Part shown: in pieces, positions 3,041-3,794 of the stretch
Numbering within the stretch: the stretch's first letter is position 1
Layout: each line of letters begins with the position of its first letter
Assembly: GCF_003334405.1 (NCBI RefSeq)
Contig: NZ_QOWM01000005.1
Reading direction: 5' to 3' (one strand)
DNA: 64,000 nt
Source of the DNA: Escherichia coli
Lineage (GTDB): Bacteria > Pseudomonadota > Gammaproteobacteria > Enterobacterales > Enterobacteriaceae
Notes under the pieces: generated by a model
Database searches by the model: none
Told to the model about the DNA's origin: nothing
Seen by the model: only the letters and a program-made list of their open reading frames with translations
Translations under genes and position numbers: made by a program

Positions 3041-3370
3041 ATGGTTAGCAGGAAACGTAATAGCGTTATTTACCGGTTTGCCAGTTTATTATTGGTGTTG
3101 ATGTTAAGTGCCTGTAGCGCACTGCAAGGTACGCCACAGCCAGCACCGCCAGTAACGGACCATCCGCAAGAGATTCGCCGCGACCAGACGCAAGGGTTAC
3201 AGCGAATAGGTAGCGTAAGCACGATGGTTCGGGGTTCTCCGGATGACGCATTAGCAGAAATCAAAGCGAAAGCTGTCGCTGCAAAAGCTGATTATTACGT
3301 TGTCGTCATGGTGGACGAAACCATCGTGACAGGACAGTGGTATTCACAAGCCATTTTGTACCGTAAATAA
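3041..3370 (+). CDS. bsmA: small lipoprotein BsmA (YjfO), DUF1471 family
   Basis: ORF 2942..3370 trimmed to the ATG at 3041 (109 aa); signal peptide plus lipobox LSAC. Confidence 0.85.
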   Translation: MVSRKRNSVIYRFASLLLVLMLSACSALQGTPQPAPPVTDHPQEIRRDQTQGLQRIGSVSTMVRGSPDDALAEIKAKAVAAKADYYVVVMVDETIVTGQWYSQAILYRK

Positions 3371-3518
3371 ATCAGACAACTTACATAGTCAGCTTTACAT
3401 TGCTTTGCGTCCCTATGCGTTTACCTGTGCACAATAAATTACCGGCTGGAAGCCTGGGCGTTTATTACCGCGATGGAATGCCCTGCAACATGTGGGGAAA
3501 CGAAAAATGGAGCTGACG

Positions 3519-3794
3519 ATGAAACAATTACTTGCCTCACCCTCGCTGCAATTAGTGACTTATCCTGCGAGCGCCACGGCACAGTCTGCAGAATTCGCCA
3601 GTGCTGACTGCGTGACGGGCCTGAATGAAATAGGTCAGATCTCAGTTAGCAATATTTCAGGGGATCCGCAGGACGTGGAACGTATCGTGGCGTTAAAGGC
3701 CGATGAACAAGGTGCGTCATGGTACCGCATTATTACCATGTACGAAGACCAGCAGCCTGATAACTGGCGCGTACAGGCGATACTGTATGCATGA
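3519..3794 (+). CDS. yjfN: small periplasmic DUF1471-family protein YjfN
   Basis: ORF 3492..3794 trimmed to MKQLLASPSLQL... (91 aa); paralogous to the adjacent bsmA. Confidence 0.85.
   Translation: MKQLLASPSLQLVTYPASATAQSAEFASADCVTGLNEIGQISVSNISGDPQDVERIVALKADEQGASWYRIITMYEDQQPDNWRVQAILYA

Follow-up and report, generated by a model that had tools for sequence, protein, structure and literature searches.

The DUF1471 family (Pfam PF07338, YdgH_BhsA-like; also called the YhcN or BhsA/McbA family) is a family of the Enterobacterales. Its members carry an N-terminal export signal and are tied to stress and biofilm responses, and the solved structures, of Salmonella SrfN, YahO and domains I and III of YdgH, have a beta-alpha-beta-beta fold. 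Other duplications are known in the family, in which the same domain has been copied locally or internally: in Salmonella yhcN lies beside STM3362 (ycfR-like), and YdgH has three domains. They concern other subfamilies and loci, and in YdgH the copies are fused in one polypeptide. The adjacency of yjfN and yjfO (bsmA) has already been cited as evidence that the family grew by duplication (Eletsky et al., 2014, PLoS One 9:e101787, PMC4092069); the duplication was undated there, and the slot was not compared across families.

Outside the family, the closest described systems are envelope proteins. RcsF, an outer-membrane stress-sensor lipoprotein, consists of a lipobox, a proline-rich disordered linker and a small alpha+beta domain, with four cysteines forming two disulfides; it interacts with outer-membrane proteins, through which it threads, and signals via IgaA. 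The likeness of its fold to DUF1471 was noted earlier (Eletsky et al., 2014, PMC4092069). The C-termini of outer-membrane proteins (OMPs) activate the HtrA proteases DegS and DegP, and CpxP is an adaptor for DegP. For YjfN itself the published role is that of a DegP ‘suicide activator’ (Kim et al., 2018, as cited in PMC12096828, bioRxiv 10.1101/2024.12.25.630354). Both DegP and DegQ are reported to be activated by it in vitro (bioRxiv 10.1101/2024.12.25.630354, PMC12096828), its periplasmic location is likewise given in the literature, and deletion phenotypes have been published for bsmA.

The locus described here consists of these known E. coli genes, bsmA and yjfN, both named and studied. 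The pairing is real but published, and is ordinary; beyond annotation it carries little significance. What is added here is a date for the event, the pair being already present in a Yersiniaceae genus, together with differences between the copies that can be read from sequence and a possible mis-set start of E. coli bsmA. We consider it probable that an ancient tandem duplication was followed by specialisation of the copies into BsmA, which is tethered, and YjfN, which activates DegP.

The bsmA-yjfN locus and its domains

Within the window (the whole 64-kb stretch of DNA analysed), the two genes lie in tandem on the same strand, exactly where a first-pass annotation made from the letters had placed them.

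3041-3370, + strand: bsmA (yjfO) coding sequence, ATG start, 109 residues as annotated (ORF list, RefSeq annotation, NCBIfam BsmA equivalog)
3519-3794, + strand: yjfN coding sequence, ATG start, 91 residues, with a Shine-Dalgarno sequence GGAG at 3509-3512 (ORF list, RefSeq annotation)
3197-3364, + strand: DUF1471 domain of BsmA, residues 53-108 (Pfam PF07338, AlphaFold, Foldseek)
3621-3788, + strand: DUF1471 domain of YjfN, residues 35-90 (Pfam PF07338, predicted model, Foldseek)
3776-3850, no strand assigned: REP-type palindromic element between yjfN and aidB (sub-threshold Rfam naRNA4 match)

RefSeq names the products ‘biofilm peroxide resistance protein BsmA’ and ‘DUF1471 family protease activator YjfN’. 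A longer open reading frame for yjfN, with a GTG start, begins at 3492; the block AATGGAGCTGACGATG at the yjfN start is kept in six of the seven aligned genera, and in Pluralibacter the start is called five codons upstream. The pair is flanked by yjfP and aidB, with yjfN and aidB convergent. The REP-derived naRNA4 match between them, seen on both strands, scores 29.8 bits against a gathering score of 59.5, and a scan of 2700-4000 with Rfam returned nothing else. Positions 2860-3910 are identical to E. coli K-12 MG1655, and YjfN here is therefore the same protein as the K-12 YjfN that has been assayed. The bsmA-yjfN stretch was found in 5425 of 5426 complete E. coli genomes.

Assignment of both proteins to DUF1471 is borne out by Pfam, which matches PF07338 once in each (1.2e-15 for BsmA, 3.9e-17 for YjfN), and they are the only two DUF1471 open reading frames across the window. 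BsmA also passes the NCBIfam BsmA equivalog NF011433, with 153.3 bits against a cut-off of 100. A sequence search of the PDB with both proteins gave no significant match, and fold membership was therefore tested on predicted models. In the AlphaFold models the domain has a pLDDT above 90 in BsmA, with the beta-alpha-beta-beta order of the solved family members, and about 90 in YjfN. The best Foldseek matches are solved DUF1471 domains, 2m2j, 4evu and 2ma8 for BsmA (plus RcsF, 2y1b) and 2jna, 2m2j, 2ma8 and 4evu for YjfN. The target TM is 0.65-0.80 and the rmsd 1.3-2.6 Å for 2m2j, 4evu and 2ma8, and the 2jna superposition is poor (target TM about 0.5, rmsd above 11 Å). Leaving aside 509 nameless matches in a representative library, the named relatives recovered were all from Enterobacterales, bar one ‘Pseudomonas aeruginosa’ record; this partial record, of 600 bp, shares 96% identity with the E. 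coli protein and probably reflects contamination.

Origin of the pair

The first-pass annotation saw in the pair a local duplication, to be checked by pairwise alignment. Similarity is readily detected: BLASTP gives 30% identity over 87 residues (E=3e-8), and the Smith-Waterman score of BsmA against YjfN has Z=13.7 relative to shuffled sequences. If the ten family genes of K-12 were placed at random, the chance of any adjacent pair would be about 0.02. Homology, tandem layout and a shared slot thus uphold the proposal, with the qualification that the event is old and that the sisterhood of the two proteins, judged from their sequences, is favoured but not proven.

The order yjfP(-), bsmA(+), yjfN(+) is kept in E. 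coli, Escherichia sp., Salmonella, Citrobacter, Enterobacter, Kosakonia, Klebsiella, Pluralibacter, Edaphovirga and Chimaeribacter. The duplication is ancient rather than recent, because the pair is syntenic in the yjfP-aidB slot of nine genera, among them Edaphovirga and, within the Yersiniaceae, Chimaeribacter. In Yersinia, Rouxiella and Pantoea that slot holds bsmA alone. Tracing the pair to Edaphovirga and Chimaeribacter, and finding the slot with bsmA only, goes beyond the earlier account (Eletsky et al., 2014).

Most likely, we infer, a DUF1471 gene in the yjfP-aidB slot was duplicated in tandem long ago, and bsmA and yjfN are its two diverged descendants; both are found in core Enterobacteriaceae, Edaphovirga and Chimaeribacter. 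From the side of BsmA the scores point to YjfN: it is the closest K-12 paralogue (Smith-Waterman 75, against 52 for the next) and the best subfamily profile (hhalign 104, against 95 and 94). From the side of YjfN, the single best K-12 match is YhcN and not BsmA (Smith-Waterman 93 against 75), and the profiles agree (hhalign 107.5 for YhcN, 104.3 for BsmA). A neighbour-joining tree of 140 domains places BsmA and YjfN in an exclusive clade in 62 of 200 bootstraps, and together with E. coli YhcN excluded in 160 of 200; it does not resolve the sisterhood, because YjfN scores about equally with YhcN.

These scores leave room for a different origin, in which yjfN derives from a yhcN-like or yjfY-like copy that landed beside bsmA, and adjacency does not reflect tandem duplication. 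Besides the higher score of YjfN with YhcN, in the point-estimate tree BsmA groups first with YdgH and YjfY and only then with YjfN (the exclusive clade having 31% bootstrap), four genera with bsmA (Yersinia, Rouxiella, Pantoea and Pectobacterium) lack yjfN, and yjfY, another member of the family, is found nearby, so that the region tends to hold family members. However, YhcN is a consensus-like hub that scores well against nearly every subfamily, and its score with YjfN is therefore inflated. The best partner of BsmA is clearly YjfN, and the less diverged BsmA of Rouxiella and Pantoea score 120-125 with E. coli YjfN against 74-86 with YhcN. An insertion of 2-3 residues in the last hairpin is common to YjfN, BsmA, YjfY and the YdgH domains and is absent from the other paralogues, and the two genes are directly adjacent, on the same strand and in the same slot, in ten lineages. 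We regard the landing of such a copy as unlikely, and tandem duplication remains the preferred reading.

Upstream and spacer motifs

According to the literature bsmA and yjfN answer to different regulators, and the upstream and spacer regions were aligned across seven genera, with Escherichia sp. L019 compared additionally. The features that stand out are as follows.

3000-3011, no strand assigned: palindrome GGGAACATTCCC, its centre some 41 bp upstream of the putative start of bsmA transcription; possible binding site of a regulator
3034-3040, + strand: CTACACT, sigma-S-type -10 element with C at -13, abutting the annotated bsmA ATG
3394-3408, - strand: CpxR-box-like motif GCAAAGCAATGTAAA in the bsmA-yjfN spacer, GTAAA-N5-GTAAA with one mismatch (pattern search)
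3424-3437, + strand: block CCTGTGCACAATAA, with a -10-like hexamer CACAAT at 3430-3435; putative yjfN promoter (seven-genus alignment)

Transcription of bsmA would start at a promoter used by sigma-S, the sigma factor of stationary phase. The gene is reported to have a sigma-S ChIP-seq peak and to form an open complex with sigma-S holoenzyme only (Peano et al., 2015, PMC4447067). CTACACT fits the sigma-S -10 type CTAYRCT and is conserved in eight species (the seven genera and Escherichia sp. L019), and we infer that this heptamer is the published promoter. In planktonic E. coli bsmA is reported to be poorly expressed and not rpoS-dependent. The palindrome GGGAACATTCCC is invariant in the seven genera and altered in Escherichia sp. 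L019. Its core, GGA-N4-TCC, resembles an RcsB-type half-site arrangement. RcsB was considered as its binder but not adopted; a literature search found no link between RcsB and bsmA.

The spacer is 148 bp long, and yjfN would have its own promoter within it, induced by the Cpx envelope-stress system. The gene belongs to the CpxR iModulon and has been listed among Cpx-regulated or Cpx-induced genes (PMC7657598, PMC5428311); a CpxR ChIP-exo study did not score it as a direct target under ethanol stress. The CpxR-like motif is not by itself above chance (5 matches in the window, 3.4 expected). Conservation across the seven genera is highest in the part of the spacer that contains it; six of them show no more than one mismatch to the box, and Pluralibacter shows two. 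The motif is a candidate CpxR box upstream of a putative yjfN promoter in CCTGTGCACAATAA.

That each gene has a separate putative promoter had been proposed at the outset. Literature and phylogenetic footprints favour this; a scan of 2800-3960 for the sigma-70 consensus gave 0 sites. A scan of the + strand over the same positions found no terminator, and folding of the spacer gave no convincing one (z = -1.8). Generic scans thus show neither promoters nor transcriptional isolation and, with no intrinsic terminator detected between the genes, co-transcription by read-through is possible.

One might then suppose that bsmA and yjfN form a single operon, encoding a functional pair of membrane-anchored and soluble DUF1471 partners. 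The two genes share a strand, are separated by only the 148-bp gap, and are both among ten genes induced in glucose limitation and also in stationary phase; the corresponding gap in Chimaeribacter measures only 65 bp and lacks a CpxR-like box. Against this, the CpxR-like box and the -10-like block are conserved in the spacer of seven genera, sigma-S is the reported regulator of bsmA and Cpx that of yjfN, bsmA occurs without yjfN in the four genera named above, and YjfN acts on DegP in vitro without BsmA. We give the operon pair little credence, and favour two copies that have specialised under separate control.

Differences between BsmA and YjfN

The first-pass annotation called both proteins secreted and their roles indistinguishable from sequence. 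BsmA has a clear export-type signal and YjfN a marginal one, but ‘secreted’ is imprecise, and the second statement does not hold: the copies are set apart by their targeting signals, by the tether, by the last residue and by the motifs upstream, and YjfN also has the published biochemical role.

3104-3115, + strand: lipobox L-S-A-C of BsmA, residues 22-25 (read from sequence)
3116-3196, + strand: proline-rich tether of BsmA, residues 26-52, predicted to be poorly ordered (AlphaFold)
3519-3581, + strand: signal peptide of YjfN, residues 1-21, of unusually low hydrophobicity, cleavage predicted at ATA|QS
3789-3791, + strand: C-terminal Ala91 codon of YjfN; this residue is the one reported to determine DegP activation

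A lipoprotein signal was recognised as a positive n-region, a hydrophobic core and a lipobox [LVI][ASTVI][GAS]C for signal peptidase II. The N-terminus of BsmA, MVSRKRNSVIYRFASLLLVLMLSAC, has a charged n-region, a hydrophobic core and the lipobox LSAC ending at Cys25, which is predicted to be the lipidated first residue of the mature protein. The lipobox is kept in 13 genera (the seven aligned, and Yersinia, Rouxiella, Pantoea, Pectobacterium, Edaphovirga and Chimaeribacter), and among the ten K-12 paralogues it is found in BsmA only. Serine at +2 predicts sorting to the outer membrane, where BsmA would probably be anchored through Cys25, with the flexible proline-rich tether holding the DUF1471 domain in the periplasm. 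The tether, of roughly 27 residues, also sets BsmA apart from the other K-12 family members. In the AlphaFold model the pLDDT averages about 52 over residues 21-30 and 80 over residues 31-40, rising above 90 from residue 41, and residues up to 42 form no regular secondary structure. The tether is also where the majority of the rare in-frame indels among E. coli strains are located.

This layout is the one described for RcsF, and the BsmA model superimposes on RcsF 2y1b with a Foldseek probability of 1.00, a TM of 0.66 and an rmsd of 2.8 Å. Sequence homology between the two is not detectable outside the signal and linker region (E=0.074). RcsF has four disulfide cysteines, whereas mature BsmA has only that of the lipobox; BsmA is therefore not classed with the RcsF-like sensor lipoproteins, although fold and layout are similar.

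YjfN would be exported as a soluble periplasmic DUF1471 protein. Its N-terminus has an n-region and an AxA-like site (ATA|Q) of the signal-peptidase-I type, but hydrophobicity is marginal: the best 9-residue Kyte-Doolittle mean is 1.19, compared with 2.0-3.4 in the other nine K-12 paralogues. Across the aligned orthologues, the signal peptide is where the sequence varies. In core Enterobacteriaceae it is followed in the mature protein by an N-terminal tail, AQSAEFASADCVTGLNEIG, which is invariant, is predicted to be disordered and contains a single cysteine.

The C-terminus of YjfN reads ...ILYA. Each of the other nine K-12 paralogues ends in Tyr followed by Lys or Arg, and none of them has a hydrophobic final residue; the alanine is present in 11 of 12 YjfN orthologues. 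This residue is reported to be the determinant of DegP activation (Kim et al., 2018, as cited in PMC12096828). The hydrophobic C-terminal alanine would bind and activate DegP, YjfN itself being degraded. According to the literature YjfN thus resembles the HtrA activators in engaging DegP through a hydrophobic end and raising proteolysis; it differs from a porin tail, which is unfolded and ends Tyr-x-Phe, in being a folded domain ending Tyr-Ala. Like CpxP it is reported to be Cpx-induced and consumed by DegP, but the two are unrelated in sequence and fold. Taken on their sequences, the two copies are distinguishable as lipoprotein and soluble protein, by Tyr-Arg-Lys and Tyr-Ala ends, and by sigma-S-type and CpxR-type motifs.

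The YjfN copies of Edaphovirga, Nissabacter and Chimaeribacter end Tyr-Arg. A tentative extension, which we put forward as possible though doubtful, is that the downstream copy was refashioned in core Enterobacteriaceae as a Cpx-controlled DegP activator through three derived changes, with BsmA serving as an RcsF-like, outer-membrane-tethered envelope monitor. The changes in the YjfN lineage would be replacement of C-terminal Arg by Ala, gain of the AQSAEFASADCVTGLNEIG tail and appearance of the CpxR-like box in the spacer. The three genera above would then keep the ancestral Tyr-Arg end, and no DegP activation would be expected of their YjfN. If the C-terminal alanine and the CpxR-like box are indeed derived traits, the locus would illustrate on a small scale how a duplicated envelope protein can become a protease activator through a single C-terminal substitution and a newly acquired regulator site.

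The start of bsmA also deserves comment. The ATG used as start in other genera reads ATT in E. coli, at 3068, and it is possible that the annotated E. coli start codon is mis-set. Shigella BsmA entries of 100 residues beginning ‘MYRF’ were considered as an ATG allele at codon 10; they are annotation artefacts, because the DNA reads ATT and lies at an insertion-sequence junction or contig end. It is very improbable that one or both E. coli copies are partly vestigial: the lost ancestral ATG of bsmA, the degraded signal peptide of YjfN (the least hydrophobic of ten), the truncated, read-through and in-frame indel variants of BsmA in the protein database, a Shigella flexneri contig in which an insertion-sequence-like element breaks bsmA at its 5' end, and the poor, rpoS-independent planktonic expression would all fit decay, but the mature domains are highly conserved across genera, query coverage is at least 80% in 5423 of the 5426 complete genomes and identity at least 99% in 4736, and published accounts give bsmA deletion phenotypes and YjfN a biochemical activity.

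The bsmA and yjfN pair

The first-pass annotation recorded two adjacent DUF1471 paralogues, bsmA (also named yjfO) and yjfN, encoded in tandem on the same strand. The ORF list and RefSeq agree on this arrangement, for which the ORF list gives:

2110-2859, minus strand: yjfP, flanking bsmA
3041-3370, plus strand: bsmA ORF, 109 aa
3519-3794, plus strand: yjfN ORF, 91 aa
3911 onward, minus strand: aidB, flanking yjfN and convergent with it

Of 5426 complete E. coli genomes, all but one (5425) contain the 1051-bp stretch 2860-3910, with an identity of at least 99% in 4736. The stretch carries the RefSeq names bsmA and yjfN and is identical to MG1655 b4189 and b4188. 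Both proteins match Pfam PF07338 (formerly DUF1471), BsmA at 1.2e-15 and YjfN at 3.9e-17, and BsmA scores 153 bits on the NCBI curated BsmA model (cut-off 100). In the 64-kb window, a profile of the ten-member K-12 family matches these two ORFs only. Pairwise alignment, the refuting test named beforehand, detected similarity between the two proteins (30% identity across an 87-residue alignment, E=3e-8), and their Smith-Waterman score exceeds that of shuffled sequences by 13.7 standard deviations. The observation is thereby confirmed as real, rightly located and rightly assigned to the family. Both are already named and studied genes, and their adjacency is already in the literature.

The AlphaFold models of both proteins contain a confident domain (pLDDT >90) with the order strand-helix-strand-strand. 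The closest solved structures to both are the Salmonella DUF1471 domains YdgH/SssB (2m2j, 4evu) and SrfN (2ma8), with rmsd 1.3-2.6 Å; 2jna, an older SrfN entry, ranks high yet superposes poorly. The BsmA model can in addition be superposed on RcsF, a sensor lipoprotein (2y1b, TM 0.66), and a resemblance of the family fold to RcsF has been described before (Eletsky et al. 2014, PMC4092069).

Export signals and termini

It had been supposed that the roles of the two copies are not distinguishable from sequence. This is wrong: BsmA has a lipobox and a tether, whereas YjfN has a signal-peptidase-I leader and a C-terminal alanine. The N-terminus of BsmA, MVSRKRNSVIYRFASLLLVLMLSAC, is a canonical lipoprotein signal with the lipobox LSAC, which is found in BsmA alone among the ten K-12 paralogues and is kept in all BsmA examined. 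The serine following the lipobox cysteine predicts sorting to the outer membrane. Anchor and domain are linked by proline-rich residues 26-52, for which AlphaFold predicts little regular structure.

Rare length variants of E. coli BsmA are numerous in the protein database (window 3116-3370; variants P0121-P0211). Among them are tether variants with in-frame duplications or deletions (ALQGTPQP, QEIRRDQT, QPA), small helix deletions, and stop-codon read-through forms of 114-115 aa. A shortened form of 98 aa belongs to a cluster of 204 sequences. The BsmA stop codon of a second Escherichia species (locus L019, 3001-3372) is altered, which yields a protein of 123 aa with a C-terminal extension of 14-15 residues.

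The YjfN leader is of signal-peptidase-I type, and cleavage is predicted at ATA|QS. The last two residues of the protein are Tyr-Ala, while in the remaining K-12 paralogues the C-terminal Tyr precedes Lys or Arg; 11 of 12 orthologues share the alanine. According to papers citing Kim et al. 2018 (PMC12096828, PMC6094958), the hydrophobic C-terminal residue allows YjfN to bind and activate DegP, YjfN itself being degraded; a 2024 preprint that also cites this work (bioRxiv 10.1101/2024.12.25.630354) reproduced YjfN-dependent activation of DegP and DegQ. The YjfN-like copies in Edaphovirga, Nissabacter and Chimaeribacter end in Tyr-Arg, and by parsimony the alanine is therefore taken as a derived trait.

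The E. coli YjfN signal peptide, MKQLLASPSLQLVTYPASATA (window 3519-3581), has two prolines and a glutamine within its core, which is the least hydrophobic among the ten K-12 paralogues (1.19 vs 2.0-3.4). Conservation is about 80% in the mature protein, and the leader is highly variable across genera. YjfN may be exported with low efficiency or in a regulated way. The start of the mature protein, AQSAEFASADCVTGLNEIG (window 3579-3635; about 17 residues), holds its sole cysteine and is almost invariant in 12 genera; the model predicts a lack of structure for these residues (pLDDT about 50-75). Edaphovirga, Nissabacter and Chimaeribacter have YjfN-like proteins without this segment, which may act as a linear motif, for instance in engaging DegP or in cleavage.

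Origin of the pair

With ten genes placed randomly among about 4300, an adjacent pair would arise by chance in about 2% of cases. The mature domains of all ten K-12 paralogues were compared by pairwise score. The top partner of BsmA is YjfN (75; next 52), and the top partner of YjfN is YhcN (93), with BsmA second (75). Subfamily profiles made from 140 domains out of a clustered protein library gave a similar picture: the BsmA profile scores YjfN at 104, YhcN at 95 and YjfY at 94, and the YjfN profile scores YhcN at 107.5 and BsmA at 104. YhcN scores highly with nearly all subfamilies, and so acts like a consensus-like hub. In a neighbour-joining tree, 160 of 200 bootstraps grouped BsmA and YjfN without E. 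coli YhcN, and only 62 of 200 gave the two as an exclusive clade. YjfN, BsmA, YjfY and the three YdgH domains have in common an insertion of 2-3 residues in the last hairpin, which is not present in the other paralogues. The BsmA proteins of Rouxiella and Pantoea score 120-125 against E. coli YjfN, vs 74-86 against YhcN.

Synteny is more informative on origin than paralogue similarity. The order yjfP(-), bsmA(+), yjfN(+) is also found in Salmonella, Citrobacter rodentium, Enterobacter hormaechei, Kosakonia, Klebsiella, Pluralibacter and the second Escherichia species, as well as in Edaphovirga cremea and in Chimaeribacter californicus, the latter from the Yersiniaceae. In Yersinia, Rouxiella and Pantoea bsmA is there and yjfN is missing from the slot, and Pectobacterium has bsmA close by, without yjfN. 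The yjfN-free lineages are equally compatible with loss of yjfN or with its later gain. Taken together, paralogue similarity and synteny point to a likely history in which a bsmA-like gene was duplicated in tandem long ago and BsmA then diverged faster in Enterobacteriaceae. The local duplication first suggested is reasonable, with the qualification that the event is ancient. In Eletsky et al. 2014 (PMC4092069), the adjacency of yjfN and yjfO in Salmonella was already offered as evidence that the family grew through duplication and divergence.

A third family gene, yjfY, lies directly across yjfP from bsmA, by rpsF, in Klebsiella (locus L002, 2290-2565), Kosakonia (L015, 965-1237) and Yersinia (L020, 2152-2427). 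In E. coli, Salmonella, Citrobacter and Enterobacter, ula (ascorbate) genes adjoin yjfP in its stead; E. coli K-12 yjfY (L006, 11517-11792) lies on the far side of the ula operon, at a distance of about 7.7 kb from bsmA, which places it just outside the window. A gene for a methyl-accepting chemotaxis protein with a Cache sensor domain is inserted at a point that varies by genus: between yjfN and aidB in Enterobacter (L014, 3447-5378) and Kosakonia (L015, 3445-5379), and directly upstream of bsmA in Pantoea (L021, 1513-3444; between yjfP and bsmA) and Chimaeribacter (L025, 1497-3455).

Promoters and the bsmA start codon

The proposal that the two genes have separate putative promoters is supported by conserved footprints and by the literature. 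A sigma-70 consensus scan of the region gave no sites, and both promoters are therefore non-consensus. For bsmA, Peano et al. 2015 (PMC4447067) found a sigma-S ChIP-seq peak across the yjfP-bsmA spacer and the bsmA start, an open complex with sigma-S holoenzyme only, and no rpoS dependence in planktonic cells, where they proposed that the gene is silent until an extra signal. In an alignment of seven genera, two elements are invariant: CTACACT at 3034-3040, which matches the -10 pattern of sigma-S, including the C at -13, and the perfect palindrome GGGAACATTCCC at 3000-3011, about 41 bp upstream of the inferred transcription start. The palindrome looks like a candidate regulator site. It is changed to CGAACATTCCC in the second Escherichia species (L019).

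In E. coli, the annotated ATG (3041) follows the inferred -10 without a gap. A transcript from this promoter would start near 3047 and lack ATG3041, making the start codon uncertain: it may be ATG3041, read from an upstream transcription start, or the weak ATT3068. All other genera examined, and another Escherichia species, have an ATG 27 bases further downstream than the E. coli start, from which a BsmA of 100 aa could be translated; E. coli and Shigella have ATT (Ile10) at this codon. In a Shigella flexneri contig (L017, 1-80), foreign sequence resembling an insertion-sequence end replaces everything upstream of bsmA codon 10, removing the promoter and annotated start. The S. flexneri database protein beginning MYRF was rejected as an annotation artefact of an ATT start.

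Within the 148-bp bsmA-yjfN spacer, conservation is highest at TTTAC-N5-TTTGC (3394-3408), followed by CCTGTGCACAATAA. The former is a predicted CpxR box in reverse orientation, with one mismatch. yjfN is part of the CpxR iModulon, and published lists of Cpx-induced genes include it for E. coli and Salmonella (PMC7657598, PMC5428311); in one ChIP-exo study it was not called as a direct CpxR target. A terminator scan and folding of the spacer found no terminator between the genes, and some read-through is therefore possible. Downstream, a REP-type palindromic element (window 3776-3850) spans the yjfN stop codon and occupies the interval up to aidB, with a sub-threshold match on both strands to the REP-derived naRNA4 family.
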